Assembly: GCA_937863685.1 (NCBI GenBank)
Contig: CALMGM010000005.1
Location: 909,046 to 973,045 of the forward strand
Source of the DNA: an uncultured bacterium
GTDB lineage: Bacteria; Edwardsbacteria; AC1; EtOH8
Direction of reading: 5' to 3'
Length of the DNA: 64,000 nt
The notes below the pieces were generated by a model, which was given only the letters and a program-made list of their open reading frames with translations, ran no database searches and was not told the DNA's origin. Shown piece after piece: positions 376 to 58,627 of this stretch (position 1 is the first letter of the stretch; each line of letters starts with the position of its first letter). The position numbers were made by a program, and so were the translations under genes.

Positions 376-843
376 CTAAGTTATGGAAATCACTTTGTAT
401 TTGATGGTGCCGGCCGGGACCGCTATTTCGGCGATATCGCCAGCCTTCTTGCCCAGCAGGCCCTTGCCGATGGGGCTTTCCACCGATATCTTGCCCTGGT
501 CGAAATCGGCCTCATTCGGGCCCACCAGGGTATAGGTCTCCTGGGAGCCGTCGCCCAGGTCCTTGACCTTGACGATCTTTCCGAAGACCACTACCCCCTT
601 GGCCAGCTTGCTCTGGTCGATCACCTCGGCATGGGTGATGTCCTCCTGCAATTGGCGGATCTTGCGTTCCACCATGCCCTGCTTTTCTTTGGCGGCATGG
701 TATTCGGCATTCTCCGAAAGGTCTCCCAGGCTGCGGGCATGGGCCAGGGCCGCCGAGACAGTGGGCCGTTCCACCGACAGCATTTTCTCCAGGTCGGCCT
801 TCATTTTGGCCAGGCCCTCTTTGGTGGTCACCACTCTGGGCAT
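376..843 (-). CDS. greA: Transcription elongation factor GreA
   Basis: 155 aa; N-terminal coiled-coil and C-terminal FKBP-like GreA motifs (LGDLSENAEYHAAKE, TYTLVGPNEAD). Confidence 0.9.
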   Translation of the reverse strand: MPRVVTTKEGLAKMKADLEKMLSVERPTVSAALAHARSLGDLSENAEYHAAKEKQGMVERKIRQLQEDITHAEVIDQSKLAKGVVVFGKIVKVKDLGDGSQETYTLVGPNEADFDQGKISVESPIGKGLLGKKAGDIAEIAVPAGTIKYKVISIT

Positions 844-1003
844 AAGGCTGCCTTCGCTTTTGGATTGATTTTATTGATCGCCATATAACTCATACCCCCC
901 TGAGGATGATAGTCAGGGGGATGTTTAACGACGACACTACAGAATCATTATATATTTTAAGGTTATGATTGTCAAGCTTATAAAGGAAGTTCTGATCCAT
1001 ATC

Positions 1004-2098
1004 TTAACGTTCCGGATATCCGGCAAAAAGACGCCCCCAGGGTGTGTCTTTCAGCCAGCGGCGGAAGAGCCGGCCCTGAACCAGCGGCCAGTGGATGACA
1101 TCGTGGTAGAAGTAAGAATAGAAGTTGCCCAGATACAGCAGGGGAGGCCTGGTAAGCAGTTTTTGCAAAAAGCGGGTCGGTCCGAACCAGGTGAACCACC
1201 CGGCAAAACGATGGAACGACATGCCTACCCGGAAACCCCAGTTCTCCCGGGCGGAGTCCTGATCGCCCGCGATCTCGATCTCCTCGGGGCGGCCGACCCC
1301 CAGCCCGTCCTCGTGAGCCATCCGGATATAATCTATCTTCATGGGGTCGAAGCCCATCATTTTGGCGGCTACCGCATCAATGGCCACCTGGTCATCTGAT
1401 GCCAGCATGATGTTTTTCACCACCGGCCGCATTATCCTGGGGCCGGGTCCGTTCCCGGCGGTGGTGGCATCCATGACGCAAAAGAGGCCGGGATGTATCT
1501 CTTTTTGAATGGTCAGCAGATCCACCAGGGTCTGATGGATATGGGTGTGGGTCTGGTGTCGTTTGTGGTTGAGCAATCCGCCAAAGGCATTTTTCATGGC
1601 CCCGGTGGTGGTGGTATAGATGTGGCATTTGGCGGTAGGCAGATGCACGATGTTCTTGCCGACAAAATAGTCCGGGATCATTATCCCTTCGTCGTAGATC
1701 TGGTGCAGGATGCGCATCCGGGCCTTGGGCCGGTAGACGATCCAGCGCATGTCCTCCTGGTGAAAGTTGAACAGGACTTTGACACCATAGGCTTTGAAAA
1801 TAGGGGCATAGCGGTTCAGCTCCTCGCCCTTGAAAGCGTTGGTCACCTCGGTCTTGTTCTGGACGCAAGCTAAATCGCGATATCCGGCGTCCTGCAGGGT
1901 TTTGATGGTACCCTCCAGCTGCCAGGGGGTGGTGTTGGCCGAGGGAAACGGATAATGCCAGGAGATATTATCCTTTATTATGGTGGCTTTTTGGTGATTC
2001 AGAGCCTGCCTGAACCCTGCCAGGTCCATCAGCCGGGCGATGTCCTTTAAAATACTTTCCGGCCTGACCTTCAATATTGCCACTATGGATTTAGTCAT
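1004..2098 (-). CDS. DUF362 domain protein (putative Fe-S binding)
   Basis: 364 aa; DUF362-like conserved blocks incl. TTAGNGPGPR; no paired opposite-strand gene. Confidence 0.55.
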   Translation of the reverse strand: MTKSIVAILKVRPESILKDIARLMDLAGFRQALNHQKATIIKDNISWHYPFPSANTTPWQLEGTIKTLQDAGYRDLACVQNKTEVTNAFKGEELNRYAPIFKAYGVKVLFNFHQEDMRWIVYRPKARMRILHQIYDEGIMIPDYFVGKNIVHLPTAKCHIYTTTTGAMKNAFGGLLNHKRHQTHTHIHQTLVDLLTIQKEIHPGLFCVMDATTAGNGPGPRIMRPVVKNIMLASDDQVAIDAVAAKMMGFDPMKIDYIRMAHEDGLGVGRPEEIEIAGDQDSARENWGFRVGMSFHRFAGWFTWFGPTRFLQKLLTRPPLLYLGNFYSYFYHDVIHWPLVQGRLFRRWLKDTPWGRLFAGYPER

Positions 2099-2105
2099 TA
2101 TTTTC

Positions 2106-3362
2106 TTAATTCCCTTCCGATTGCGATGCCGGTGGTTTGTTTTTGCTTAAAATATCCAGGCATTCCGTTTCTTCGGTCACCTGGTTGCCGGTGTACATCA
2201 AGCCCGCCATCATCACCAGGCTGGAGACCAGGATCACGAAGAACAGCACGCCCTCGCCGAACCGCTTAAGCACGAATTGCTGGGGAATGCTGTAATAAAG
2301 GATGATGGTGATCAGTCCGCGGGGGGCGATGAATAATTCCGGAAACAGGCTGGTCTTGGCGATGTATTTAAGATGAAAATAGCGGACCGAGAAGATCATT
2401 ACCATTATCAGACTGCCCAGCAGGATAATCTCCAGGTTAAGCAGATAGGCCAGGTGGATGGAGTAGCCGAACAGCACGAAGAAGAAAGTCCGGATGACAA
2501 AAGCCGACTCCGAAGTGATCAGCTTTAATTGCCGGAGCTCGTAGGTCAGCTTGTACGGGTTCAGATATTTCTTGATGGGGCCCCGGACGATCAGATAAAC
2601 GTTGCTGATGGTCAGGCCGAACACCAGTATCAACAGCAGGGATGAAAGGTGAAACAGCTCTCCCAGGGAATACACCAAAAACAGGATGGAGAGCAGCAGG
2701 AAGAATTTATTGTGTCCGGCGATCTTGTCAATGAACAGCAGCAGCAGCAGGGAGCAGACCACCGAGATGAGCGAGATGACGGTCAGGTTGCCGACAAAGG
2801 AGAAGACCGAAGCAGCCGACCACAGGCTTTTCTGAATGGCGAAATTGAAGATCATGATGCCGATGATATCCGAAAAGGTGGCCTCATAAACCATGAACTC
2901 TTTTTTATCGGGGCTCAGGTTGCAGACCGAGGGGATCACTATGGCGCTGCTGATGACGGCCATGGGGACTGCGTTTACAAAGCAACTTTGGAAAGGAGCG
3001 TTCAGCACCAGTTTTATCACCAGGGCTATCAGCAGGGATGATGCCACGAAGATCAGGACCGCCGAGGCCATCGATTTTCTTATCACCGGCAGCTTCTCCC
3101 GGCTGAGGTTGAGTTCCAGAGTGGCTTCCAGCACGATCAGGATCACTCCGATGATGCCGAACAGCTCCAGATATATTCGGGAATTGAGGAAGGCTATATT
3201 CAGAGAGCTACCGACAAAACGCAGGATGATCCCCACGGTCAATAGCAGCAGGACCGAAGGGATTCTCGACTTCCGGGACATGATGTCGAACAGGTAAGAC
3301 ATTATCACCAGAAGACTCAAGGAAATGATCAGCGAATATGAAAGCAATCCCGGATGATCCAT
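2106..3362 (-). CDS. Cation:proton antiporter (CPA1/NhaP-like) membrane protein
   Basis: 418 aa polytopic hydrophobic protein with Na+/H+ exchanger-like TM pattern. Confidence 0.55.
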   Translation of the reverse strand: MDHPGLLSYSLIISLSLLVIMSYLFDIMSRKSRIPSVLLLLTVGIILRFVGSSLNIAFLNSRIYLELFGIIGVILIVLEATLELNLSREKLPVIRKSMASAVLIFVASSLLIALVIKLVLNAPFQSCFVNAVPMAVISSAIVIPSVCNLSPDKKEFMVYEATFSDIIGIMIFNFAIQKSLWSAASVFSFVGNLTVISLISVVCSLLLLLFIDKIAGHNKFFLLLSILFLVYSLGELFHLSSLLLILVFGLTISNVYLIVRGPIKKYLNPYKLTYELRQLKLITSESAFVIRTFFFVLFGYSIHLAYLLNLEIILLGSLIMVMIFSVRYFHLKYIAKTSLFPELFIAPRGLITIILYYSIPQQFVLKRFGEGVLFFVILVSSLVMMAGLMYTGNQVTEETECLDILSKNKPPASQSEGN

Positions 3363-3455
3363 AGATTAACCCAGATAATGATGATTAGTGTGTTGTTCAA
3401 TAGGAATTATCTTATATATCCGGAACGAAGTCAATCCAAATGATAGGGGCTGTTT

Positions 3456-4916
3456 TTACAGAACCAGCCAGGACAGCAGGATCACTAAAATGAATACCGT
3501 GAATACCGCACCGTAGGAGATGGAGAGGAGATTCAATTTGATAAAGGTGGGCCAAAAGCCCTGCTGATAGAATCTTCTCATGCTCAAGTAAAGGTATAGC
3601 GGAATGGTCATGATCAGCAGACTCAGCCACTGGCTGAGCACTGGGATATGGAAAAAGCGGGTGGAGGTGATAACCAGAATGGTCAAAAACACAAAGGCGT
3701 GAAAATGAATTGAGAATATCAGGTGCTGCATGTAATAGCGTCCGGAGCGGATGTAGAGCAATTTCAGCAGCAGGGCGAACAGCGGCATCAGCAGGAACAT
3801 GCTCTGGGCGAACCGCTCGATAAGCGTCTCCACGAACAGTTCGGGATTTTTGGTTCCGCGGCGGTATCCTTCCTCGACCATCTTGGTAAAGCGGTGGTCG
3901 AAGCTTAAGGTATCCTCTTGGGCGACATTGATGTCTTGCCCGGTTATTGGCTCGGAACCATTATCCGTAGCTTTGATTTCAATTCTTGTTTCGGGCTCCT
4001 CCTGAAGCTCCTCCAGATGGGAGCGCTTGCTGGTCATGGCCAGCAGCAAAAACAACACGAAACTGATGATTACGTAGGTTCTTAAGGGCGGGACGTAGCG
4101 CACTCTCCGGCCGGCTATATAATCGGCGGTAAGGAAACCCGGTTTGGTGATCAGCGGGGCCAGGGTGTGAATGAAGCGCGAGTCGATCCGCAGTTCATCC
4201 CACAGGAATTCGTGCAGCAGCTCCTTGAAGGGGACATTGATGTCGGTGTTCTTCTGGCCGCAGTCGTGGCAGTATTTGCCGTGCAACAATGCTCCGCAAT
4301 TTAGGCAGTTATCCGGCAGAGCATGATGAATCCTCGATTTGCGGGGAACAAAAAAACCGGTGGTTTCCTTATAATTCAAATATTCCTCGCCCAGCTGCAG
4401 TTCCAGTTCCTTCTCCTCGATGCGGCACAGCAGATAAAAGGCGGGGATCCACAACAAGGAGAACAGTATCAGGAAGGGAGAATTCAGTATCAAGGCGGCC
4501 ACCAAGGGGAGAGCCATCTTGCCCAGGGCCTGGGGATGGCGGATCTTTTGATAGATCCCGCGGGCGGAGGCCCGGCGGTCCTTTACGGCAATGCTCTCCG
4601 GTCCGGCGTCGATCATCCCCCTTATCCAAATGACGATGGAGGGAAGGCCGATGATGATAGCGGCAGCCAGAGAGAACCAGCGATTCCAAAGAAATTCGGC
4701 AGGGATGAATTTGAAGGCCGGGAAAGCCTTATACAGCAGGTAGCTGATGAAATGCAAAACCAAAGACGCCGCCGATATGATCCTGAAAATAACGGACCGC
4801 AGTTCGGTTCGGCCTTCTGGGGCCAAGGCTTGGATAGATCCGGCGACGCTGCGATATCCGAAGAACAGATACAGCCCGGCGGAAAGGAACATTAATATAA
4901 GGATAAACCAGGACAT
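3456..4916 (-). CDS. Membrane fusion protein: ICMT/PEMT-like methyltransferase domain + zinc ribbon + DUF3667-like membrane domain
   Basis: RHPQALG...EEKELELQLGEEYLNYKETTGFF methyltransferase motif; CLNCGALLHGKYCHDCGQ zinc ribbon; C-terminal polytopic region resembling DUF3667. Confidence 0.5.
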   Translation of the reverse strand: MSWFILILMFLSAGLYLFFGYRSVAGSIQALAPEGRTELRSVIFRIISAASLVLHFISYLLYKAFPAFKFIPAEFLWNRWFSLAAAIIIGLPSIVIWIRGMIDAGPESIAVKDRRASARGIYQKIRHPQALGKMALPLVAALILNSPFLILFSLLWIPAFYLLCRIEEKELELQLGEEYLNYKETTGFFVPRKSRIHHALPDNCLNCGALLHGKYCHDCGQKNTDINVPFKELLHEFLWDELRIDSRFIHTLAPLITKPGFLTADYIAGRRVRYVPPLRTYVIISFVLFLLLAMTSKRSHLEELQEEPETRIEIKATDNGSEPITGQDINVAQEDTLSFDHRFTKMVEEGYRRGTKNPELFVETLIERFAQSMFLLMPLFALLLKLLYIRSGRYYMQHLIFSIHFHAFVFLTILVITSTRFFHIPVLSQWLSLLIMTIPLYLYLSMRRFYQQGFWPTFIKLNLLSISYGAVFTVFILVILLSWLVL

Positions 4917-4937
4917 AAACGATTAATAATTTGATTA

Positions 4938-5387
4938 TTATTTTACCATATCCTCGGCCTTGGAAAAATGCATCTGAAAAATCTTCCACGTGCCATCGAT
5001 TTTCTCCAAAACGCCTGTCCAGCGCACCTTCTCCCAGTTGGCAGGCTTGCCTTTAAAGGTATTGAAATCATCCAGCAGGCAGGCAAACCAGGCGGTCTGT
5101 AATGTCGCCGATAAGTTTATCCTGAGTTCATGCAGCTCGTATTTTATCGCCTTAAAATCATCCCGCATGAAGAAATCCCCCGTCATTTTTTTAAATTGCT
5201 CAATGCCCCTGACGGTACTTTTGGAATCGGTCTGAAAGAAGAACAGTTCGTCATTGTCTATCATGGAAGAATAAAGCTGGTCCAGGTTCTTATTGTTCAC
5301 CGCCCAGCCGATGCTGTCCCGTATGACCTGGTCAATTATTTTGATCTCGGGATGGGGATTGTCGATGTTATTGTAGGTGTAGGGCAT
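4938..5387 (-). CDS. NTF2-like / SnoaL-like domain protein
   Basis: 149 aa soluble protein with NTF2-fold-like pattern; weak. Confidence 0.4.
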   Translation of the reverse strand: MPYTYNNIDNPHPEIKIIDQVIRDSIGWAVNNKNLDQLYSSMIDNDELFFFQTDSKSTVRGIEQFKKMTGDFFMRDDFKAIKYELHELRINLSATLQTAWFACLLDDFNTFKGKPANWEKVRWTGVLEKIDGTWKIFQMHFSKAEDMVK

Positions 5388-5391
5388 GATA

Positions 5392-5910
5392 TCATTCCTT
5401 TCGATTATCTATCCAGAACCGCAGGATGTTTTTACCGGTGGATTCCTCTAAAACGACGTTCTCGATGATCCCGCCGTTTTTTTCTATCACTTTTTGCGAG
5501 TGGATATTTTCTTCATTGCAGGTGACCAGGACCCGGTCTATGCCATGTTTTGCGGCTTCCAGCAGAGTCTGTCTTAATATCTCCGTAGCGTAGCCTTTCC
5601 GGCGGTGTTCGGGTGAAACATCATAACCGATATGGCCGCCGATATTCAAAAAATACTTATTTAGCTCCAGACGCAGCCGGCTGTTACCGACAAGAACATT
5701 GTCATCATTCAAGAACCAAAATGATTTTTGCAGGACCTTTCCCGGCGGCAGATTATCCGGGTCCTCGAACCGATTGAGTGCGGTAATATATTCCCGAAAG
5801 GGCTGCCCTTCTTTTATCTGATGCCGGTCCTCACTATGCCGGCGGTAGGTTGCGGAGAATTCAGCGAATAATGGCTCGGTGAGTTCGTCTAATCTTATAT
5901 GGCGAAGCAT
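5392..5910 (-). CDS. GNAT family N-acetyltransferase
   Basis: GHIGYDVSPEHRRKGYATEILRQ acetyl-CoA binding motif (R/Q-x-x-G-x-G/A). Confidence 0.75.
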   Translation of the reverse strand: MLRHIRLDELTEPLFAEFSATYRRHSEDRHQIKEGQPFREYITALNRFEDPDNLPPGKVLQKSFWFLNDDNVLVGNSRLRLELNKYFLNIGGHIGYDVSPEHRRKGYATEILRQTLLEAAKHGIDRVLVTCNEENIHSQKVIEKNGGIIENVVLEESTGKNILRFWIDNRKE

Positions 5911-5925
5911 ACTAATAACGTTGTT

Positions 5926-6690
5926 TTATTTGGGGCTGATTCTCGGCAAGTAATCAAGCTTCGGATTAGAGATGGCTTTCAGTAGATTCTCTTTTACCGG
6001 AGAACCATCGGATTGCAGGTTATTAAGCAGTTTTCTGATCGCAAGCCGTTTGGAATCCTTGGCCCCCGGGCAGGAGAATGTCTTTATTCGCCCGAACCTT
6101 TGAGCGGAATATTTGACGATTTCCTCTTTCCAAACATAAGCCAGTGGCCGGATGATGTACGCTTTGTTTTTGAGAATCGATTGCTTGGGCAGAATAGCGG
6201 CCAGTTTGCCGGAATACAGAATATTCAGCAGGGCGGTTTCCACCAGGTCGTCGGCGTTGTGGCCAAGGGCGATCTTATTGCAGCCCTGCTCCTCGGCCAG
6301 ATCGAACAATGATCTCCTGCGGGCCAGGGAGCATTTGAAGCAATCGGTAAAAATATCCCCGCTCAACGGCGTCACAGAGGCCACGAAAGGTACACTCAAG
6401 GCAACGCATATTTTTTTCAGCTTTTTTACCGGGGCGAGGGGTTTCCCCTGGTACTCTCCCGGCACGTGTCCGGCGATGATGGATATCCCCAGACTGCGAC
6501 CGAGTTTTTTATGCTGTTGGGACAGGATATCCAGCATTACCAGACTGTCACTGCCGCCGGAAATGCCTATTAATACTTTATCTTCCGGCTCAAGCTGTTT
6601 AAAGTCTTTTTCGGCCCGAATGACCCGGGGATAGATTTTGCCCCAGTTGTCAGGCTTGGTCAGAGCATATCTTGCTTTTTCATCTTTCAT
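5926..6690 (-). CDS. ttcA: tRNA 2-thiocytidine biosynthesis protein TtcA-like PP-loop ATPase
   Basis: PP-loop SGGSDS, CFKCSLARRR (TtcA CxxC-RRG-like motif), second Cys pair downstream. Confidence 0.6.
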   Translation of the reverse strand: MKDEKARYALTKPDNWGKIYPRVIRAEKDFKQLEPEDKVLIGISGGSDSLVMLDILSQQHKKLGRSLGISIIAGHVPGEYQGKPLAPVKKLKKICVALSVPFVASVTPLSGDIFTDCFKCSLARRRSLFDLAEEQGCNKIALGHNADDLVETALLNILYSGKLAAILPKQSILKNKAYIIRPLAYVWKEEIVKYSAQRFGRIKTFSCPGAKDSKRLAIRKLLNNLQSDGSPVKENLLKAISNPKLDYLPRISPK

Positions 6691-12803: not shown

Positions 12804-14447
12804 ATGTCTATGTTCTGTTATCAATGCCAGGAGACCGCCGGGAACAAGGGCTGCGCCGGAGCCAGGGGCGTCTGCGGCAAGCCCGACCAGGTGGCTGTGC
12901 TGCAAGATCTGTTGATCCACACCCTTAAGGGCATTTCCTATCTCAACGCCAAGGCCAAGGACAGCGGCCAGTGCGACCCAAAGGCCTCGGAATTCGTGAT
13001 GGAACAGCTTTTTGCCACCATCACCAATGTCAACTTCGATCCGGAGTATTTCGTTAAGCAGATAGACAAAGCCAGAGAGATCCGGGATGGTCTTAAGAAA
13101 TCGGTCAAGCCCGATGACCAGCTTCCCGATGCCGCCGTCTGGTCAGTCAAGAGCGGCCTGAACGAGTACCTGCTCAAGGGCGCCGAGGTGGGCATAATGG
13201 CCACAACCAATGAGGATGTGCGTTCCCTGCGATCGCTGATATTGTTCGGCCTCAAGGGCCTGGCGGCCTACGTCCATCACGCCTATGTGCTGGATGCCAA
13301 AGACAACGAAATACTCTTATTCATGCAGCAGGCCCTGGCCGCCACGCTGGACGACAGGCTCTCGGCCGACGAGCTGACCGGGCTGGTGCTTAAGTGCGGG
13401 GAATACGGGGTCAAGGCTATGGCCCTTCTGGACCAGGCCAACACCGGAAAGTACGGACATCCGGAGATCACCAGCGTCAAATTGGATGTGGGCCAGAATC
13501 CGGGCATTCTGATCAGCGGCCACGACCTGAGGGACCTGGAGGAACTGCTGGAGCGGACCAAGGGTAAGGGGGTGGACATCTACACCCACGGGGAGATGCT
13601 GCCGGCCAACGCCTATCCCGCTTTCAAAAAATACCCCAACTTCCACGGCAACTACGGCGGTTCTTGGTGGCACCAGAATGAGGAATTCGAGAAGTTCAAC
13701 GGCCCGGTGCTGATGACCACCAACTGCCTGGTTCCGCCCAAGGAGAGCTACAAGGACCGGGTGTTCACCACTGGAGTGGTGGGATTCCCCGGGGTCAAAC
13801 ATATTGCCGACCGGGAACCGAGCAAACAGAAGGATTTCTCCGAGCTTATAGCCCTAGCCCAAAAATGCAAAGCCCCGGAGAAACTGGAGGACGGGCAGCT
13901 GACCGTCGGCTTTGCCCACAACCAGGTGCTGGCTCTGGCCTCCAAGGTCATTGAGGCCGTCAAAAGCGGGGCCATCAAGCGTTTTGTGGTGATGGCCGGC
14001 TGCGACGGGAGGCACAAGTCCCGGGAATACTTCACCGACATAGCCAAGGCCCTGCCCAAGGACGCGGTCATTCTCACCGCCGGCTGCGCCAAGTACCGCT
14101 ACAACAAGCTGAACCTGGGCGACATCGGCGGTATCCCCCGGGTGCTGGACGCCGGGCAGTGCAATGACAGCTATTCGCTGGTCTTAATAGCCTTGGCGTT
14201 GAAAGACGCTTTCGGGTTGAAGGACGTCAACGAACTGCCGGTCAGCTACGACATCGCCTGGTACGAGCAGAAGGCGGTGCTGGTGCTGCTGGCCCTGCTG
14301 CATCTGGGGGTGAAGAACATCCATCTGGGACCGACCCTGCCGGCTTTTGTGTCGCCCAATGTGCTGAAGGTGCTGGTGGAGAAGTTCAATGTCCAGCCGA
14401 CGGCGGGGGTCGAGGAGGACGTGAAGATGTTGATGGCGGGGGGCTGA
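12804..14447 (+). CDS. hcp: Hybrid cluster protein / hydroxylamine reductase
   Basis: [16 protein letters not shown]-terminal Cys cluster, 547 aa, conserved Hcp blocks throughout. Confidence 0.9.
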
Positions 14448-14497
14448 CCTCACCCCAACCCTCTCCTGATAAATCAGGAGAGGGAGAATTAAAAGCG

Positions 14498-14529
14498 AAG
14501 AAGCCGTGGCGTTATGCCACGGCTTTTTG
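14498..14529. terminator. Palindromic hairpin family copy 1 (aagccgtggc-gttat-gccacggctt + T5)
   Basis: 10-bp perfect stem + T-run; preceded by second hairpin ctctcctga-taa-atcaggagag at 14461-14482. Confidence 0.6.
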
Positions 14530-14558
14530 TTGCATAAGGGATCAAATGCCTGTATAAT
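14530..14558 (+). promoter_or_regulatory. Putative promoter TTGCAT-N17-TATAAT directly abutting hairpin copy 1; start codon 7 nt after -10 (possible leaderless mRNA)
   Basis: ttgcat 14530-14535, tataat 14553-14558, ATG 14566. Confidence 0.4.
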
Positions 14559-14565
14559 CGTCAAA

Positions 14566-15663
14566 ATGACTAGAAGACTACATAGATACAAATTGCATGT
14601 GCTTTGGGATCTCTGGGGTGAAGGAAAGCGCTATTTTGCCGGGACGATACATAAGAAACGGGCCGAGGTATTGGAACTGATAGGGGAATGGTCCCGGGCG
14701 CTGGGGATCTACCGGGAGATCCTGGATGTCTATGAGGCTGCCTCACTGTCCGGACCGGCTGCGATACAGCGGGTCAATATGGGTCGGGTGATGTATAAGA
14801 TGGGTGATCATGAGGAAGCAATCGCTCTTCTGAAACAAGCGGAGGAAATTTTAAAGAAGCTTGATGAATCAAAGAACCTGTCCGACATTTACAGTCATCT
14901 TGGTAATATCCGTCTTAACCAGGCCCGATACCAAGAGGCCGAGGACCTTTTCCGGAAACGTTTGGACCTCAATGCCAGGGTCAACAATGCTGTGGTATTT
15001 TGCGCCACCTACGGGAATCTGGGGAACCTGGAATATGCCAGGGGCCAGTTGGAAAAGTCCGAGGAATGGTATCGCCGCCAGTTGGAATCCGCCGTCCGGG
15101 AAGGTATCAAAGAGTATCAAGCCGTGGCGATAGGGGCCATGGGCTGTATTCACGCCCAGCGGGAGGAATACGATTTGGCTCTGAAAGCCTTCCAAGATTT
15201 CCTCGGATTGGCCAGAACCACCGGCGATACCGGAAAAATAAGAGTGGCCTTAGGCAACATCGGCAACTACCATATCCAGTTTGGGCAGTATGCGGAGGCC
15301 AGGGAAATATATCGTCAGCAGTTGGCTCTGGCCGAACGGATGGGAGAAAAAAAGGGGATCTGTCTGGCGTGGGGCAATCTGGCCAAGGCCAGCCATCGTC
15401 TGGGCCAGGAACAGCGGGCCCGGGAAGAGATCCTGTCGGCAATTGCCATCGGAGAGAAGATGGGGCTAAAATATTTCCTGCCCGAGCAATACCTGCTTCT
15501 GGCCGAAGTTCGTCTGGCTTTGAATCTGTTTCCCGAGGCAAAGGGAGCCGCTTTGCGAGCCCGGGAACTGGCAATAGAGAACGGCGACCCGGACGATGAA
15601 AAAAGCGCCCAGGAGCTGCTGGACGCAATTTCAGCGAAGCTGATTAAGCAATCCGGCGGATAG
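14566..15663 (+). CDS. TPR-repeat protein
   Basis: Multiple 34-aa TPR-like repeats (A..Y...G.....A); start moved downstream of hairpin. Confidence 0.6.
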   Translation: MTRRLHRYKLHVLWDLWGEGKRYFAGTIHKKRAEVLELIGEWSRALGIYREILDVYEAASLSGPAAIQRVNMGRVMYKMGDHEEAIALLKQAEEILKKLDESKNLSDIYSHLGNIRLNQARYQEAEDLFRKRLDLNARVNNAVVFCATYGNLGNLEYARGQLEKSEEWYRRQLESAVREGIKEYQAVAIGAMGCIHAQREEYDLALKAFQDFLGLARTTGDTGKIRVALGNIGNYHIQFGQYAEAREIYRQQLALAERMGEKKGICLAWGNLAKASHRLGQEQRAREEILSAIAIGEKMGLKYFLPEQYLLLAEVRLALNLFPEAKGAALRARELAIENGDPDDEKSAQELLDAISAKLIKQSGG

Positions 15664-15710
15664 AATGTTAAAAAGCGGTGCAAAGACCGCAGCATAGATG
15701 ATAATAAAAA

Positions 15711-15742
15711 AGAAAGCCGTGGCTTTATGCCACGGCTTCTTG
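15711..15742. terminator. Palindromic hairpin family copy 2 (bidirectional, between convergent genes)
   Basis: agaaagccgtggc-tttat-gccacggcttct. Confidence 0.6.
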
Positions 15743-15756
15743 GGGTTAAATGTGCT

Positions 15757-16392
15757 TTATTGTTTTGGGAACCCCCAACTTAACCAAGATACATATTGAT
15801 CACGCAGCACTTCAGCAATATCAAATATTTCGTCGGCTTGTGCTGTTGTAACTTTAAGGCCATGTACTGCAGCATTGCACCAATTAATTATATATACAAG
15901 AAGATCCGCTTGTCTATAAGTGATAGCTGAATTCTCTTTTAGTTTTCGAACAATAATATTTGCACTATCGCGGTTATTTATTTGAACTTTAAAGCCTTTT
16001 GCAAGATTCTTTAATAAAGTTTCAAATTCAATGCGTAAACCAGCTAAAGCAATTGTTGGGTCTTGTTCGATAAGGTTACGATAAAAAGATAACTCTAATC
16101 CAGAAGGGGATGGGGATAGTCCTAGATTTAACATACGGGCATTAGCTTCTGTTAAAGGAATCGTAGCTGTTGCTTTTTTCTCACCCTCTTTTTTAACCAC
16201 CGAAGATAACGCTTTGGCTTCTTTGATTTCTTCGGGGAACGTTTCAATTGATACGCCACCCGGTAAGTCCGCTTTTTTCACGCGCTTGATCAATAAAACG
16301 ATTTCTTCTCTAAAAGAGATAACTAAAAGAAAAGTTACTAATGGCCAAATAATAGCCTTAATATATTCGAGTATTAATTTTGCAACATCCAT
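15757..16392 (-). CDS. Membrane-anchored DUF4145 (HEPN-like) domain protein; AT-rich
   Basis: One N-terminal TM helix; C-terminal block ANIIVRKLKENSAITYRQADLLVYIINWCNAAVHG...AEVLRDQY resembles DUF4145 (R..GN.AAH core); GC far below flanks. Confidence 0.45.
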   Translation of the reverse strand: MDVAKLILEYIKAIIWPLVTFLLVISFREEIVLLIKRVKKADLPGGVSIETFPEEIKEAKALSSVVKKEGEKKATATIPLTEANARMLNLGLSPSPSGLELSFYRNLIEQDPTIALAGLRIEFETLLKNLAKGFKVQINNRDSANIIVRKLKENSAITYRQADLLVYIINWCNAAVHGLKVTTAQADEIFDIAEVLRDQYVSWLSWGFPKQ

Positions 16393-16483
16393 GATTTATT
16401 CCACGCTGTTCAATTATTTTAACATGTAACAATAGTGGCATTGTAGTAAATAATATCAACTATGTCAAGTATAATATTATCTT

Positions 16484-16513
16484 AAGAAGCCGTGGCTTAT
16501 GCCACGGCTTCTT
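16484..16513. terminator. Palindromic hairpin family copy 3 (13-bp perfect stem aagaagccgtggc/gccacggcttctt, loop ttat)
   Basis: Read directly. Confidence 0.6.
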
Positions 16514-16545
16514 GCGGCCGCATCTTGCTACTGTGTCTGCATTAT

Positions 16546-17034
16546 TTATAGATTTGTAGTTTCCAAGATCCTTTTAAGGTTCTCCCCCTCTTCTTTCATG
16601 TGTTTTTCTACAGAAGCTATTCCGCTTGCCAGCTTATTTTTTGCAAAGGTTTTAACCAGTCGTCCAACCCTAAAAGACCCCAGGGCTGTGAAAATACATC
16701 CATTTTGCGTCGGTTCGATAATAAATGTATTCTTGGGGTAATATATTCTTAACAGCCAAAATGAGGGCACATATTCAATAGTTCTATTGGGAATTACTTT
16801 TGTAACGCGAAATGTCAAGGTATGCAGTTCGCCTTTAAGATATTCTTTGGCGCGAAGCACAGAGCCTTCTTGCCAAGGCTTTCCCTTGATCCAACAAAAC
16901 TCAATATGGTCCTGGGGATGCCAGAGCTTATAGTTTTGATCATCTGTAATGCCGGTCAGGAAATTAAAAACCGCCTCGGGGCTGGCCTTAATTTCTATCG
17001 AATCTTTTAGAATGATATCTTCCAATATCCTCAT
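16546..17034 (-). CDS. SRPBCC (START/Bet v1-like) domain protein; AT-rich
   Basis: 162 aa with polyketide-cyclase/SRPBCC-like pattern; low GC. Confidence 0.5.
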   Translation of the reverse strand: MRILEDIILKDSIEIKASPEAVFNFLTGITDDQNYKLWHPQDHIEFCWIKGKPWQEGSVLRAKEYLKGELHTLTFRVTKVIPNRTIEYVPSFWLLRIYYPKNTFIIEPTQNGCIFTALGSFRVGRLVKTFAKNKLASGIASVEKHMKEEGENLKRILETTNL

Positions 17035-17134
17035 GTATTTGATCTCCTATATCGGCAATAAGGTCATCAATGTGTATTAGTAATAATAGATAGTACAACG
17101 TTATTTGTCAAGATAAATAGAGAATATTGCATTA

Positions 17135-17165
17135 AAGAAGCCGTGGCGTAACGCCACGGCTTCTT
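17135..17165. terminator. Palindromic hairpin family copy 4 (14-bp stem, loop taa)
   Basis: aagaagccgtggcg-taa-cgccacggcttctt. Confidence 0.6.
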
Positions 17166-17204
17166 GCGTCCCTTCCCTTATTGGGGAAGGGATTGAGGGT
17201 TAGG

Positions 17205-17642
17205 TCAAAACAGCTTCTTATACTCCCCGTAACCTTCCTTCTCCAGCTCCTCCACCGTGATGAACCTCAGCGAAGCCGAGTTTATGCAGTAGCGTAGGCC
17301 GGTGGGCCGGGGGCCGTCGTCGAATACATGCCCCAGGTGGGAATCGCCGGTCTTGCTGCGAACCTCGGTCCGGACCGTGTTGTGGCTGGTATCCCTCTTC
17401 TCCAGGATCAGGGTAGTGTCCAAAGGCTTGAAAAAACTGGGCCAGCCGCAGCCTGATTCGAACTTATCCCTGGAACTGAACAACGGCTGGCCGGTGGTGA
17501 TGTCCACGTAAATGCCCTCACGCTTCTCGTTCCAGTATTTGTTCAGGAAGGGCGGCTCGGTGGCGCTCTTCTGGGTGACCTGATATTGCAAGGGAGTCAA
17601 CCGCTTTTTAAGTTCCGGATCCCCGGCTTTGGTGTATTTCAT
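17205..17642 (-). CDS. msrB: Peptide-methionine (R)-S-oxide reductase MsrB
   Basis: CGWPSF and [11 protein letters not shown] catalytic motifs, [10 protein letters not shown]. Confidence 0.9.
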
Positions 17643-17788
17643 TTAAGAAGCCCGATAAAATTATTGCTGTTGATATATATTAATGTAACACGTTTTTGAA
17701 ATAAATCAAGAGGCTGGTGAAAATGTCATTGAATATTGGTTTTTTCAGTGGTAATATAAATGTGTAAACTTTCAAAAAGGAGTTTGCC

Positions 17789-18433
17789 ATGTTGAAGAAA
17801 ATACTTTTATCGTTGCTCGCAGTGGGAATCATCGCGGTTATCGCCATTGCGATATTTATCTTCTTTGCCATGAAGGGTCCTGATCTTTCCAAATACCAAT
17901 ATCTGAAGGACCCGCAGATCTCGGAAAAACCAAATCAGAAAATGCTGGTGGTGGAGGCCAGGGGCGACCCCAATATCGTGGGGGCCAAGGCTTTTGCCCT
18001 GCTGGTCAAGGTTTATTTCAAAACGGTAAAAGGCGGCAAGATGCAGATCCCCCGGGCCCGCTGGCCGCAGGACCTGGGCACCAGTCTGGACGAATGGGTG
18101 GGGCAATATGCCCTGCCGGTCCCGGAGACCACCGAAAAACTGCCCGAGATCAAGCACGAACCGGGATTTAAGATAACTTTATCCGGATGGGAATACGGCA
18201 CGGTGGCCGAGATCCTGCATATCGGGCCGTATAACAAGGAAACGCCGGCCATCGAAAGGCTCAAAAAGTACGCCCATGACAACGGTTATTACATAACCGG
18301 CCTGCACGAGGAGGAATATTTAAAGGGGCCGGGGATGTTCGGCCCGGGCGATTCGGGAAAGTATCAGACCATCATACGGTACCGGGTGGAGAAAACGGCG
18401 ATCGAAGATACTAAAGAAACGAAAAAGAAATAA
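17789..18433 (+). CDS. Membrane-anchored GyrI-like small-molecule-binding domain protein
   Basis: N-terminal TM; EYGTVAEILHIGPYNKETPAIERLKKYAHDNGY GyrI-like motif. Confidence 0.5.
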   Translation: MLKKILLSLLAVGIIAVIAIAIFIFFAMKGPDLSKYQYLKDPQISEKPNQKMLVVEARGDPNIVGAKAFALLVKVYFKTVKGGKMQIPRARWPQDLGTSLDEWVGQYALPVPETTEKLPEIKHEPGFKITLSGWEYGTVAEILHIGPYNKETPAIERLKKYAHDNGYYITGLHEEEYLKGPGMFGPGDSGKYQTIIRYRVEKTAIEDTKETKKK

Positions 18434-18442
18434 ATATAATTT

Positions 18443-18790
18443 ATGCTCAACATTCAGATATTCGGAACCAATAAATGCCGGGACACCCGGGCCGCCCAGC
18501 GCTTTTTCAAGGAGCGCCGGGTGGCTGTCCATTTCATCGATCTAAGCGAAAAACCCCTCAGCCGGGGGGAGCTGAACAGCATCAGAAGCGCAGTAGGCCT
18601 GGAGAATCTGATTGACACCGAAGGGAAGGAATATCAGAGACAGAATCTCAAGTATCAAAAATACGATATAGAGCAGGTCCTGCTGGATAATCCCGGGCTG
18701 CTCAAAACGCCCATCGTCCGCTTTGGCCCCAAAGCCACGCTAGGATACCAACCGGATGTTTGGAGAAAATGGCTGGAGGCGCCCCAATAA
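18443..18790 (+). CDS. ArsC/Spx-family (YffB-like) thioredoxin-fold protein
   Basis: IFGTNKCRDTRAAQRFF...LLKTPIV...TLGYQP pattern of ArsC/Spx/YffB family. Confidence 0.6.
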   Translation: MLNIQIFGTNKCRDTRAAQRFFKERRVAVHFIDLSEKPLSRGELNSIRSAVGLENLIDTEGKEYQRQNLKYQKYDIEQVLLDNPGLLKTPIVRFGPKATLGYQPDVWRKWLEAPQ

Positions 18791-18885
18791 TAAATCCAGA
18801 AACCTTCATTTAGCTATTGATATTACCGCCGAATGTTACTATAATATACCCGTTTATGAATTTATTTTAATCAAAGGCCGGAGAG

Positions 18886-19740
18886 ATGGTAAAATACAAG
18901 GAAAGAAACATTTTCCGGGTCAAGGATACCAGGATAGATGTTAAGCCCATAAAAAAGCTGAAACTATACGGCTTCAACAACCTGACCAAGACCCTCAGTT
19001 TCAACATGTACGATGTCTGCTACGCCAAGGGGACCAAATACGGCGGGGATTACATCAAGTACATCGACGAGGAATACAACGCCGCCCGGCTGACCAAGAT
19101 CCTCAAGGAAGTGTCATCCATCATCGGGGCCAAGGTGCTGAATATCGCCCAGCAGGACTACGACCCCCAGGGGGCCAGCGTCACAATGCTGATCTCGGAA
19201 CAGCACATGCAGGTCGAACACCCCGATTTTCCGGACGGCCAGGCCGAGAATCTTCATTCCGAAGCGGTGGTGGGACATCTGGACAAGAGCCATATCACGG
19301 TGCACACCTATCCCGAGAGCCATCCCCACAACAACATCAGCACCTTCCGGGCCGATATCGACGTCTCCACCTGCGGGATCATCTCCCCGCTGAAGGCCCT
19401 GAACTACCTGCTGGACGCTTTTTATTCCGATATTGCGGTGATCGACTACCGGGTGCGGGGTTTCACCCGGGATGTGGGCGGCCGGAAATATTTCATCGAC
19501 CACAAGATAAACTCCATCCAGAATTACCTCTACAAGGAGGTGGACAAGGATTACCAATTGATAGACACCAACGTCTACCAAGAGAACCTGTTCCACACCA
19601 AAATGATGCTCAAAGATTTCAGCATCGATGATTACATCTTCGGCTCCGGCCCCAAAAAACTCCGGACTCGCGACAAGGTGAACATCAAAAAAATGCTGCA
19701 CAAGGAGATGGCGGAGATATTCTTCAGGGAGAACATATAA
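18886..19740 (+). CDS. speD: S-adenosylmethionine decarboxylase proenzyme (class I, SpeD type)
   Basis: [25 protein letters not shown]...[12 protein letters not shown]...[20 protein letters not shown] closely parallels E. coli SpeD. Confidence 0.85.
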
Positions 19741-19746
19741 AAAACC

Positions 19747-19776
19747 AAAGCCGTGGCTTAAAAGCCACGGCTTTTT
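19747..19776. terminator. Palindromic hairpin family copy 5 (bidirectional between speD and feoAB)
   Basis: aaagccgtggctt-aa-aagccacggcttttt. Confidence 0.6.
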
Positions 19777-19849: not shown

Positions 19850-21787
19850 TTACAGCCAGAGCAGATTCATCAAAAAGCCCACCAGAACAGCCCAGCCCAA
19901 GGTCAATGACAGCACCCGGACGATCCCCCGCCAGCCGATCTCCTTAAGGGCCACGAAAAATGTGGCCATGCAGGGCAGGTACAGCACCAGGAACACCGAG
20001 GCGATCACCGCCTGCTTGGGCGACAGGTTCAGGGGCGCCAACAGGGCAATGGAGATGTCCTTGCGCAGGAACCCGAACAGGATCACGCTGACCGCCTCCC
20101 GGGGCAGTCCCAGAACGTTCACCACCAGCGGCTTGGCCAGCCGGCCCAGCAATCGTATCACCCCCAGCATCTCCAGGATATTCACCGCCAGCACTCCCAG
20201 CACTATCAGCGGGGTGGCTTCCAGCAAAAAGCTTTTGATGCGCAGCCAGGTCTTGCGGAAAAGCGTTCCGGCGTGGGGGCGCTGATAAGAGGGGATCTCC
20301 ATGATGATCTCGGGCGACTGCCCTTTTAATATCCTGGTCAAGAACAGGCTGTTTACCACTGCCACCGCTATCAAAACGCCGAAAGCCAGGATCACATAGC
20401 CGATCCCGAAGCCCGACAGCAGGGAGACCATCATGGCCGACTGGGGCAGGCAGGGGGCGGCCATCAATAAAAGCGTCAAAGCCAGTATCTTCTCCCGCCT
20501 TGACTCCAACACTCTTAAAGCCAGCACGCCGGGAACCTTGCAGCCGCAGCTTAAGACCAGGGGCAGGGCGGCGTAGCCGTGCAAGCCCAGGCGGTGCATG
20601 GTCCGGTCCAGCAGCACCGCCAGGCGGGGCAGGTAGCCGACGTCTTCCAGCACCCCCAGCACTAGATAGAAGGCGACGATATAGGGCAGGACGATGGCCA
20701 GGGGGATGTAGACCCCGGTGGTCAGAGCCCCGAAGGATTGCATGAACTCAGGGGTCTGTCCGGCCAGCAGATGGCGGACCGCCGGCCAGGGAATGAACGC
20801 CACCAGCTTTTGCACCAGCGGCCCGTATAGATTTTTGAAGAAGGGATCCAGCAGGTATGTTATCAGCCCCTCGCCCAGCAATCTTATGGCCGTAAAGGAA
20901 ATAGTCATCACCGCCAGGGCGATCAGCACCCCGGAGAGCGGCCGGACGCTGGCGTCCTCCAGTTTCTCCAGCAGGCTGGGGTGCTTGTGGGTTATCCTTT
21001 GGACCTCCTGGCTGATGTGCCCGATTATATGCCAGCGTTCCTGGTGGTCGATGGTCTTAAATTCCGAAGGTTTTATTTCCCCCCGCCCTGCTCCTGCCAC
21101 CGCCGACATCACCTGCTTCAATCCCTCTCCGGTCACCGCCACCACCGGAATGACCCTGACCCCCAAACGCTTAGCCAGCTCCTCGCAGTTGATATTGATG
21201 CCCTTGTGGCGGGCGATATCCCATTTGTTGAGCACCACTATCAAGGGGATCTTTTTCTCCAGCAACTGCAGGGTCAGGTACAAATTGCGCTCCAGGTTGG
21301 TGGCGTCCACCACGTTGATTATCAGGTCGGCCTTATCTCTGGTGCAGAAATCGCTGGCCACTTCTTCGGCTTTACAGGTGGCCTCCAGGGTATAGGCCCC
21401 CGGCACGTCTACCAGCTCCATTCTTTTGCCATCGGCCCAGACGGCTCCCTTGGAGAATTCCACCGTGGTCCCGGCGTAGTTGGAGGAGACGGTGCCCAAG
21501 CCGGTCAGCCGGGAAAAGACCACGCTCTTTCCCACATTGGGATTGCCGAACAGCAGGACCTTGAAATCGTCCACCATCACAGTAACCTGTCGGGCCATTC
21601 CCTTGCCGATGGCCACCTGCCCGTTGGGGGAGGATATGACCACCGGGCCGAAGTCCGAGACCTTGGTCACCCTCAGGCCGGGGCGAAGCCCCAGCCTCTC
21701 CAGACGGGCCTGCAGTCCGTGCCCGCCGGAGACGGATTCGATCCGGGCGGCCTCGCCGTTCTTCAATTCTGATAAATTTAAAATCAT
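19850..21787 (-). CDS. feoB: Ferrous iron transporter FeoA-FeoB fusion
   Basis: N-terminal FeoA SH3-like (LKNGEAARIESV), G-protein motifs GNPNVGKS, NKWD, followed by polytopic permease; compact FeoB portion. Confidence 0.8.
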   Translation of the reverse strand: MILNLSELKNGEAARIESVSGGHGLQARLERLGLRPGLRVTKVSDFGPVVISSPNGQVAIGKGMARQVTVMVDDFKVLLFGNPNVGKSVVFSRLTGLGTVSSNYAGTTVEFSKGAVWADGKRMELVDVPGAYTLEATCKAEEVASDFCTRDKADLIINVVDATNLERNLYLTLQLLEKKIPLIVVLNKWDIARHKGININCEELAKRLGVRVIPVVAVTGEGLKQVMSAVAGAGRGEIKPSEFKTIDHQERWHIIGHISQEVQRITHKHPSLLEKLEDASVRPLSGVLIALAVMTISFTAIRLLGEGLITYLLDPFFKNLYGPLVQKLVAFIPWPAVRHLLAGQTPEFMQSFGALTTGVYIPLAIVLPYIVAFYLVLGVLEDVGYLPRLAVLLDRTMHRLGLHGYAALPLVLSCGCKVPGVLALRVLESRREKILALTLLLMAAPCLPQSAMMVSLLSGFGIGYVILAFGVLIAVAVVNSLFLTRILKGQSPEIIMEIPSYQRPHAGTLFRKTWLRIKSFLLEATPLIVLGVLAVNILEMLGVIRLLGRLAKPLVVNVLGLPREAVSVILFGFLRKDISIALLAPLNLSPKQAVIASVFLVLYLPCMATFFVALKEIGWRGIVRVLSLTLGWAVLVGFLMNLLWL

Positions 21788-58058: not shown

Positions 58059-58547
58059 ATGGAAATAAAAAAAACCGCCGAAGAGATCATAAGCAAAATA
58101 AAAGAGATTGCCCAACCCCTGGCCGATGAGATGGGGCTGGAGCTGGTGGACGTGGAATACAAGGCCGGAGGCGATTTCCTGAGGGTGTTCATCGAACGAC
58201 CCGGCAAAGGCGTTGCCATGGATGACTGCAGCAGCTTGTCCCGCCGTCTTTCGGCCGAGCTTGACAACAACGACCCCATTGTCCATTCCTATAATCTGGA
58301 AGTGTCATCTCCGGGGCTGGACCGGCCGCTGAAGAAAGAGGAGGATTATCTCCGTTACGCCGGGAAACCGGCCAGGATCATCCTCTCCCAGCCCCTGAAC
58401 GGCCAGAATACTTTCGTGGGGAATATCGGCGAGCTCCGGAACGGGATGGTCAGGATCAATCTGAAGGATCAGGAAGCGGTATGGCTGCCGCTGGCCCAGA
58501 TAAAGAGGTCCCATCTGGAAGTGGAACTGAAAAAGAAACAGACCTAA
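58059..58547 (+). CDS. rimP: Ribosome maturation factor RimP
   Basis: LELVDVEYKAGGDFLRVFIERPGKGV...VSSPGLDRPL; start at MEIKK downstream of proS terminator. Confidence 0.8.
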   Translation: MEIKKTAEEIISKIKEIAQPLADEMGLELVDVEYKAGGDFLRVFIERPGKGVAMDDCSSLSRRLSAELDNNDPIVHSYNLEVSSPGLDRPLKKEEDYLRYAGKPARIILSQPLNGQNTFVGNIGELRNGMVRINLKDQEAVWLPLAQIKRSHLEVELKKKQT

Positions 58548-58627
58548 CCCCCATACCATCCCCGGAAGGGATGGTCGGGATGCAAAATAACACCAGTGAT
58601 CACCTACATACTTAAGGAGTAAAAGTC

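Follow-up and report, generated by a model that had tools for sequence, protein, structure and literature searches.

Five copies of a single palindromic hairpin punctuate the region between hcp, the gene for hydroxylamine reductase, and the feoAB fusion gene in the 64,000-nucleotide stretch of chromosome analyzed here (contig CALMGM010000005.1; hereafter, the window), which derives from an uncultured member of Candidatus Edwardsbacteria. Comparison with related genomes indicates that this hairpin marks the positions at which genes are added to and lost from the locus, and that it probably mediates these gains and losses. The copies constitute a paralogous family that is restricted to the locus and copied in step with the gene units; they lie at the breakpoints of homology between relatives, their stem is conserved, and one of the units that they enclose is foreign. 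Terminator activity is predicted from the structure of the hairpin, and a manner of duplication is proposed from sequence comparison. The explanation we lean towards is host-driven: a terminator hairpin resident at the 3' end of hcp would act as the joint of a hot spot of gene accretion.

The palindrome AAGCCGTGGC-loop-GCCACGGCTT is present in five copies between positions 14501 and 19774, designated HP1 to HP5 (Table 1), and in none elsewhere in the 64 kb. A search of the window with the more permissive pattern GCCGTGGC-N2-8-GCCACGGC returned five matches (14503-14523, 15716-15736, 16489-16508, 17140-17160 and 19750-19771), and the same search in 100 dinucleotide-preserving shuffles returned none. 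The exact 10-mer was found outside the hairpins only once in the window, as an unpaired half-site within the TPR gene (15119). The copies resemble each other over approximately 30 bp, and an alignment including 40 nucleotides (nt) on either side showed that the flanks are not shared. The other strong hairpins of the window (8463, 52073 and 57913) are each of unique sequence. These results bear out the original prediction, made from the sequence of the window, which had described five near-identical palindromes with perfect stems of 10-14 bp, absent from the rest of the 64 kb and set among terminators that are each unique in sequence.

The locus was compared across eight genomes, including the window, two of which (L076 and L098) were recovered by scanning for the palindrome and the other relatives through their hcp homologs. 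The two loci obtained from the scan are related to the window, with which they share 78-84% nucleotide identity. All 18 hairpin copies in the eight genomes fall within the stretch from hcp to the ArsC-family gene or at the speD/feoB junction of the window, and none was detected elsewhere in the window (58 kb) or in approximately 130 kb of the relatives' sequence outside the locus (L204, L206, L207, L208, L209 and L210). Between the anchor genes, n gene units are accompanied by n+1 hairpins in every genome, from no unit and one hairpin up to three units and four hairpins (Table 1). An orthologous copy lies 3' of hcp in all seven hcp-bearing relatives, and HP1 is the window's ortholog of this single hairpin. 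Hairpins are spaced by 0.6-2.6 kb, and by up to 8.8 kb in L204. The SRPBCC unit, bounded by hairpins, appears in independent assemblies, namely L204 (ENA), L205 (NCBI) and 22 further places with like neighboring genes; a metagenome search with msrB returned only relatives of at most 73% identity, which lack the hairpins. The interpretation of the array as a series of cassette-like units, for which the original prediction had proposed a comparison of synteny, is thereby upheld: units of hairpin and gene are present or absent one by one in the relatives, with breakpoints at the hairpins. The block differs between relatives rather than forming a conserved core, and its palindrome is not a terminator used throughout the genome, since it has no copies in the rest of the window or off-locus in the relatives.

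The positions at which homology is interrupted coincide with the hairpins. Homology across hcp stops at position 14524, the end of HP1, in the comparison with L204 and at 14525 in that with L206. The next block shared with L204 extends from the first base of HP3 to HP4 (16484-17162, aligned with L204 11716-12395 at 87.8% identity). Hairpin A of L204, the only one directly after hcp there, combines the left flank of window HP1 (ggagagggagaatta...gaag) with the right flank of window HP3 (...cttgctactgtgtctgcatt). From these flanks and blocks it follows that, with respect to L204, the window carries an insertion consisting of the TPR gene, a hairpin and the DUF4145 gene, with a hairpin copy at each end. 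Conversely, the radical-SAM unit of L204 is missing from the window together with one hairpin, and HP4 corresponds to L204 hairpin B on its left side and L204 hairpin C and L076 hairpin II on its right side. The TPR unit is absent from L098, L204, L206, L208 and L209, and is found in L210 between two hairpins and with the same promoter; further downstream, window positions 17721-18780 align with L210 11197-12250 at 81%. Except for the DUF4145 unit, the arrangement of the window could be derived from two chromosomes, one like L210 and one like L204, through a crossover at a hairpin and another in the shared downstream genes. The TPR genes themselves (window 14566-15663, L210 10001-11107) are approximately 69% identical at the nucleotide level and 56% at the amino acid (aa) level, with the flanking hcp and GyrI-like/ArsC sequences at 81-86%, a drop that could reflect either allele replacement at the hairpins or fast evolution.

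Two further observations concern the architecture of the relatives. The order of the OmpA gene and msrAB is reversed, and their orientation kept, between L076 (554-3588) and L208 (13283-15188), with hairpins at the new L076 junctions; the difference between these two loci is one of rearrangement as well as of insertion or deletion. The L207 contig (11645-11704) ends approximately 60 nt past hcp, at the expected position of the repeated hairpin, and the repeat or the variable region may break assemblies.

Each of the three units in the window has promoter-like sequences of its own. The putative promoter of the TPR gene (TTGCAT-17-TATAAT, 14530-14558) starts 4-6 nt past the hairpin in both the window and L210, and the DUF4145 and SRPBCC genes are preceded by TTGACA-17-TACAAT (16468-16440) and TTGACA-17-TATTAT (17111-17083), each with 11 of 12 consensus positions. 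A TTGACA-type site also lies beside the hairpin in the methyltransferase unit of L076. Orientation is mixed, with the TPR gene on the plus strand and the other two on the minus strand. The SRPBCC unit, including its promoter, is orthologous to the L204/L205 unit, and the SRPBCC gene is present as well in L208 and L209, where it is fused into operons with other genes. Two units had been singled out as AT-rich, and this is real: guanine-cytosine (GC) content is 0.35 in the DUF4145 unit and 0.39 in the SRPBCC unit, versus 0.54 in the window.

The DUF4145 unit is, from its composition of 35% GC and its distribution, of foreign origin. The nearest homologs of its protein reach 78% aa identity and occur in many other phyla, in the vicinity of HEPN/AbiU2, toxin-antitoxin, TIR and Pycsar genes, and no further copy was found in Edwardsbacteria. 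Similarity to these homologs at the DNA level is limited to the coding sequence (CDS), and the hairpins downstream of the homologs are different ones. The hairpins around the DUF4145 gene hence stem from the recipient locus and not from the incoming gene. The idea that gene cassettes had arrived with a shared flanking palindrome can thus be retained for the cassette-like nature of the units but not for the palindrome, which is resident, being found after hcp in seven relatives. One DUF4145 homolog, in L122 (JGI 3300038466 Ga0394676_81169, 500-6484), is part of a mostly co-directional run of small toxin-antitoxin and defense genes (DUF2442/DUF4160, ParE, VapBC, HEPN_AbiU2) that resembles a chromosomal integron cassette array. 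The closest homolog belongs to an unrelated AT-rich genome (L120 and L121), in which two neighboring genes, for DUF4145 and an outer-membrane beta-barrel protein, are each followed by the hairpin CACGACCC-ttt-GGGTCGTG (L120 1027-1045 and 1991-2009; L121 839-857 and 1803-1821).

The alignment of the 18 copies indicates that the hairpin is under selection. Six of the ten core stem pairs are invariant and the other four are each changed in one copy; L208 carries one compensatory G:C to A:U replacement. Cells of the alignment are paired in 92% of cases, versus 35-49% with the partner slid, while the loops vary (gttat, tttat, ttat, gtaac, attat, ataat, attgt and ggtat, among others). For each of the 18 copies, the predicted folding free energy (dG) of either strand lies between -17 and -27 kcal/mol, and stems of 10-14 bp with 7-9 GC pairs are of the kind expected of an intrinsic bidirectional terminator, which combines a GC-rich stem of 5-14 bp with a loop of 3-8 nt. 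Such terminators also have a U-tract past the stem on the transcribed strand, and bidirectional action calls for an A-tract ahead of it. The hairpins are located 6-60 nt past the stop codons of hcp, TPR, DUF4145, SRPBCC, msrB and speD. Clear T-tracts follow HP1, HP2 and HP5; the sequence past HP3 and HP4, CTTCTTG or CTTAAGA, is only moderately rich in T and did not register in the terminator scan. Taken together, these features fit a bidirectional terminator or insulator.

The stem sequence by itself does not single out an element. When 185,579 species genomes were scanned for AAGCCGTGGC-N3-6-GCCACGGCTT, at least 119 stretches matched. The stem is shared by over 100 unrelated genomes of unrelated phyla, and nearly all of the matches listed are single copies with runs of A and of T at their flanks. 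Since the listed matches are mostly single terminator-like hairpins, it is not the sequence but the presence of five copies in 5.3 kb that needs explaining. Viral contigs yielded four single-copy matches only, which provide no link to phages, and matches in Rfam were all sub-threshold and to terminator stems of unrelated small RNAs. In one of the scanned genomes, an Acutalibacteraceae metagenome-assembled genome (L007, JAZQJF010000024.1), two copies of the AAGCCGTGGC palindrome (4241-4264 and 5681-5704) have the same 11 nt, taaacaacaaa, on their left and enclose two genes of the minus strand (4277-5625), which may represent a hairpin-bounded unit in a different phylum. With this case and that of L120/L121, bracketing by a repeated hairpin may be a more general phenomenon.

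In the mechanism that we favor, the palindrome would be an intrinsic-terminator hairpin, acting in both directions and resident 3' of hcp in Candidatus Edwardsbacteria, and this 3' region would constitute an accretion hot spot in which self-contained accessory units, several of them with their own promoter, stack upon one another. Every joint would then bear a copy of the same hairpin, yielding n+1 hairpins for n units, and the copies would serve as terminators and insulators between stacked units. The identical stretch of 25-30 bp would provide a joint for the gain, loss and re-assortment of units between strains. Recombination would most likely be driven by the host and by homology, either as short-repeat or homology-facilitated crossover or through the repair of breaks at the palindrome, and an enzyme encoded in the array is probably not involved. 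The presence of a full copy on both sides of a foreign gene might be attributed to the repair of palindrome-provoked breaks from a sister copy, to insertion between tandem duplicate hairpins, or to staggered cuts made by an enzyme on either side of the palindrome.

Several considerations weigh against this mechanism. The shared stretch, at 25-30 bp, is about as short as RecA-dependent exchange allows. A foreign gene that lacked the hairpin and now carries a full copy on both sides is not accounted for by the model. The exact conservation of the stem sequence, beyond what pairing demands, could point to a sequence-specific protein partner. HP3 and HP4 may terminate weakly because their T-tracts are poor. 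The restriction of the family to one locus refers to approximately 190 kb of sequence and to two relatives from the scan in which only this locus was returned, and all of the sequences compared are metagenome assemblies.

A first alternative is a dedicated recombination or integration system encoded in trans (integron-like, Xer/dif-like, or relying on Cas1/casposase-like staggered cutting), for which the hairpin would be the site and the locus a true array of gene-sized cassettes. An n+1 rule and breakpoints that fall precisely on the repeat are hallmarks of site-specific insertion, the stem sequence is stricter than pairing alone needs, a foreign gene between complete copies fits target duplication, and the locus draws recombination systems, as illustrated by an integron that lies a few kb off in L206. 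Furthermore, the loops with a 5' G and a 3' T all face one way in the 18-copy alignment, so that the copies behave as direct repeats; this pattern is suggestive, the loop (G/A)T(T/A)AT being nearly palindromic and offering about four independent informative positions. Such a system is nevertheless unlikely, since no recombinase was found among the ORFs tested in the 64-kb window or beside the array in the relatives, save for the L206 integron with its unrelated attC sites. The spacing of the half-sites also varies between 4 and 6 nt (in the five window copies, the inner ends GGC and GCC lie 4, 5, 5, 5 and 6 nt apart) and neighboring loops differ in sequence, variation incompatible with a tyrosine or serine recombinase whose crossover region is fixed, and the copies are confined to one locus. 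We consider rather improbable, too, the specific possibility that a hairpin-specific insertion mechanism cuts on both sides of the terminator palindrome, or integrates circles carrying one copy, and thus duplicates the palindrome with each insertion; such a mechanism, to which we assign the same low likelihood, would produce an array of gene-sized cassettes based on a terminator and without an element-encoded integrase.

A history of losses alone has a similarly low probability. Here, a larger ancestral array, each unit of which ended in a copy of the terminator, would have arisen by old tandem duplication and been altered by later deletions and ordinary recombination in flanking genes, the hairpins being terminators without a role in insertion. 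Deletions between short direct repeats occur frequently, and exactly one hairpin would remain after them, as observed in L098 and L206, and the SRPBCC unit is old, because it has diverged like its flanks (87.8% versus 81-85%). The units differ, however, comprising TPR, DUF4145, methyltransferase, S9 peptidase and 255-aa genes as well as the radical-SAM operon, and an ancestor holding all of them is unparsimonious. In addition, the DUF4145 gene is a recent gain between two hairpins, given its foreign composition and the lack of any other copy in the lineage.

Mobilization of the hairpin as a miniature palindrome related to repetitive extragenic palindromes (REP) and bacterial interspersed mosaic elements (BIME), by a REP-associated tyrosine transposase (RAYT) or an IS200/IS605-type enzyme acting in trans, is very unlikely. 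The original prediction had entertained such an element, and the hairpin is indeed a short GC-rich palindrome at intergenic positions. All 18 copies are nonetheless found at one locus and not dispersed, the palindrome is perfect rather than imperfect, there are no BIME-type clusters of alternating orientation, and no RAYT, TnpA or other transposase domain was detected in the window open reading frames (ORFs) tested, although a RAYT gene could lie anywhere in the genome. The copies also change along with gene units and not by themselves, and in other phyla the stem occurs only as single terminators among the matches listed. Convergence of generic terminators or an artefact of metagenome assembly at the repeat is scarcely credible, for although the 10-bp stem keeps arising as a terminator, in over 100 unrelated genomes, and the arrangement of the window was seen in a single assembly, shuffling gives an expectation of zero copies, the 18 copies share the loop consensus (G/A)TTAT and arm extensions, the SRPBCC unit recurs in independent assemblies, and a repeat of 25-30 bp is shorter than the usual final assembly k-mers.

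Among known systems, the locus is closest to the minimal mobile elements or horizontal-transfer hot spots described in Neisseria, a term used in PMC3082526 and PMC1538595. As in those elements, a fixed site between conserved genes holds accessory genes that vary between strains, without mobility genes, and exchange there is thought to proceed by host recombination. Eight arrangements were found in eight genomes between hcp and msrB or ArsC, and the window units are free of mobility genes. Minimal mobile elements are defined by their flanking genes, whereas here the same palindrome is found at every internal joint and up to three units are stacked. The individual units are reminiscent of phage morons. 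Morons are units of promoter, gene and terminator inserted between phage genes, as in HK97 and HK022. The units of the window likewise combine a sigma-70-type promoter-like sequence, one gene and a terminator-like hairpin, with deviant GC content in two of them, but they are chromosomal and not part of a prophage, and their terminators are all copies of one sequence. The locus behaves like a minimal mobile element or hot spot whose occupants are moron-like units, and the palindrome at each joint and the n+1 rule fall outside those definitions. No description of a single terminator palindrome at every joint with an n+1 rule was found in the literature searched.

Integron arrays, and the clusters of attC sites lacking integron-integrases (CALIN), share with the locus their single-gene units, a repeated hairpin-forming site, the n+1 logic and a content of defense or toxin-antitoxin-like genes. 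A canonical attC has the architecture R''(RYYYAAC)-L''...L'-R'(GTTRRRY), forming an imperfect palindrome of approximately 57-141 bp with unpaired bases. The hairpin was rejected as an attC, as it is a perfect palindrome of 25-31 bp with outer ends AAG...CTT and flanks that are neither complementary nor conserved, and it has neither the R'', L'', L' and R' boxes nor an outer AAC...GTT. Rather than promoterless and uniformly oriented, as integron cassettes are, the units bear promoter-like sites and are of mixed orientation. No intI was detected in the window, where the best tblastn match to the L206 IntI had an E-value of 0.89 and no ORF matched Phage_integrase.

The L206 integron itself (13560-18524; Logan SRR26484130_475) is a complete one, located between msrAB and ArsC in an Edwardsbacteria-like chromosome. 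Its intI gene (17286-18524) encodes a 412-aa protein that scores 383 bits against TIGR02249 (cut-off 265) and has VchIntIA (2A3V, E 3.5e-69) as best structural match. The integron also has an attI-like GTTAGGC and, upstream of intI, three cassettes: one for a T5orf172 protein, one for an N6/N4 methyltransferase together with a NotI-like endonuclease, and one for a protein of 160 aa. One attC (at approximately 14140-14200) is 93-97% identical to the aadB/aadA-type attC sites of clinical class 1 integrons, found on more than 2,500 plasmids. The classical attC sites of this integron (e.g. TCTAAC...GTTAGCC) are unrelated to the hairpin, which lies outside the cassette array.

The remaining families of repeated sites resemble the hairpin in fewer respects. 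Sites of the dif type are 28 bp long, with an 11+6+11 structure and a fixed 6-bp center (PMC6449649). The pdif modules of Acinetobacter plasmids are small and bounded by short, partly palindromic sites, and are shuffled between replicons by a recombinase encoded elsewhere; the hairpin differs from these sites in its perfect arms of 10-14 bp and its chromosomal position away from a GC-skew switch, and a dif or pdif identity was rejected, given a center of variable length (3 to 6 nt) and a GC skew that runs monotonically through the window. Like REP/BIME and the terminators formed by DNA uptake sequences (DUS) or uptake signal sequences (USS), the hairpin is a short GC-rich palindrome downstream of genes that would double as a terminator; those sequences number hundreds to thousands of copies genome-wide, in contrast to the one locus found here, where copies change in step with units. 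An uptake function was rejected, the 10-mer being found only in the hairpins and the one half-site. In arrays of clustered regularly interspaced short palindromic repeats (CRISPR), a palindromic repeat of approximately 30 bp is duplicated at each spacer integration by Cas1-Cas2, so that n inserts are flanked by n+1 direct repeats. The direct repeats of such arrays measure 23-50 bp and alternate with non-coding spacers of 20-70 bp, usually in the company of cas genes. The topology is alike and might serve as an analogy for a staggered-cut mechanism only; CRISPR spacers measure 30-40 bp, unlike the genes of 0.6-9 kb inserted here, and a CRISPR array was rejected given that the spacing of 0.6-2.6 kb in the window holds genes and that no cas domains were found in the window ORFs tested. 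A hairpin telomere or protelomerase site was likewise rejected, as the loops are asymmetric and of odd length.

A second 3' module, distinct from the repeated hairpin and designated T2, is located beside it. It has the form TGACCT(A/C)ACCCC, 4-5 nt and a CCCTYTCC...GGRGAGGG hairpin, and lies 3' of the hcp, msrB and rimP stop codons, the rimP copy being at 58540-58575. The hcp module recurs 3' of hcp in L204 (11648-11684), L206 (11646-11685) and L207 (11637-11681), and the msrB module is also present in L076. Its ACCTAAC or GTTAGGT mimics integron R boxes, but both boxes are never paired; for this reason, and because the module is a gene-linked 3' element that follows core-gene stops, the proposal that the CCCTYTCC hairpins are halves of a split attC was rejected. 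T2 may be a lineage-specific terminator or 3' untranslated region element.

The genes around the array belong to the core chromosome, which in the window includes lpxC-fabZ, lpxA, proS and rimP-nusA-infB, and none of the window ORFs tested contained a recombinase or transposase domain. The hcp gene is 83-91% identical to hcp of Candidatus Edwardsbacteria/TA06, with roughly 25 genomes at or above 83%, and is syntenic in L098, L204, L206, L207, L208, L209 and L210; msrB is syntenic in L076, L098, L204, L206, L208 and L209, and ArsC and speD are found in L206 and L208 as well. Pfam supports the identities originally given to hcp, TPR, SRPBCC, msrB, ArsC, speD and feoAB, and weakly that of DUF4145, but not the GyrI-like label, as this 214-aa protein has no Pfam match in the window and its L209 ortholog has a faint match only.

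Table 1. Features of the window from hcp to feoAB, and arrangement of the locus in the eight genomes compared (HP, copy of the repeated hairpin; T2, second 3' module; slashes separate successive elements).
Feature	Position	Strand	Description
hcp	12804..14447	+	Hydroxylamine reductase; Pfam Prismane E 6e-174; conserved left anchor
T2 of hcp	14445..14484	+	TGACCTCACCCC, then hairpin CCCTCTCCTGA-taaa-TCAGGAGAGGG
HP1 (copy 1)	14501-14525		10-bp perfect stem, loop 5 nt; AAGCCGTGGC-gttat-GCCACGGCTT; predicted dG -23.7
Unit 1, TPR gene	14530..15663 (CDS 14566-15663)	+	Pfam TPR_12 and others
HP2 (copy 2)	15714-15738		10-bp stem, loop 5 nt tttat; terminator-like on the minus strand, tail CTTTTTTATT
Unit 2, DUF4145-family gene	15757..16468 (CDS 15757-16392)	-	Weak Pfam DUF4145 match
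HP3 (copy 3)	16484-16513		13-bp stem AAGAAGCCGTGGC, loop 4 nt ttat
Unit 3, SRPBCC (Polyketide_cyc2) gene	16546..17111 (CDS 16546-17034)	-	Pfam match
HP4 (copy 4)	17135-17165		14-bp stem, loop 3 nt taa
T2 of msrB	17169..17205	-	TGACCTAACCC, then hairpin TCCCTTCCC-ttattg-GGGAAGGGA (read on the minus strand)
msrB	17205..17642	-	Pfam SelR E 7e-49; conserved right anchor; msrAB or msrB-msrA in relatives
Backbone genes	17789..19740	+	214-aa GyrI-like, ArsC-family, speD (AdoMet_dc)
HP5 (copy 5)	19747-19774		12-bp stem AAAGCCGTGGCT, loop 4 nt taaa; between convergent speD and feoB; terminator-like
feoAB fusion gene	19850..21787	-	Pfam FeoA, FeoB_N, Gate, FeoB_C; convergent on HP5
Locus in UBA5202 (L098)			hcp / HP / msrB-msrA; 0 units, 1 hairpin
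Locus in L206			hcp / HP / (75 aa) msrAB; 0 units, 1 hairpin
Locus in L208			hcp / HP / SRPBCC + 255-aa gene / HP / msrAB; 1 unit, 2 hairpins
Locus in L209			hcp / HP / SRPBCC + S9 peptidase / decayed HP / msrAB; 1 unit, 2 hairpins
Locus in L210			hcp / HP / TPR / HP / GyrI-like, ArsC; 1 unit, 2 hairpins
Locus in L076			OmpA / HP / methyltransferase-like gene / HP / msrB-msrA; 1 unit, 2 hairpins
Locus in L204/L205 (Edwardsbacteria RIFOXYD12_FULL_50_11)			hcp / HP / SRPBCC / HP / 8-gene FemAB/radical-SAM operon / HP / msrB; 2 units, 3 hairpins
Locus in the window			hcp / HP / TPR / HP / DUF4145 / HP / SRPBCC / HP / msrB; 3 units, 4 hairpins (plus fifth copy at speD/feoB)

How single accessory genes, free of mobility genes and yet insulated, enter chromosomes is poorly understood. 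The locus offers a natural series of zero to three units over eight genomes of an uncultured phylum, in which every insertion comes with a further copy of the terminator already resident there. If a dedicated enzyme were involved instead of the host, it would represent a new cassette system. Should the palindrome indeed be the site at which recombination takes place, new genes could land safely at intrinsic terminators, which would also supply portable short homologies through which expression-ready units could be stacked and swapped between strains.

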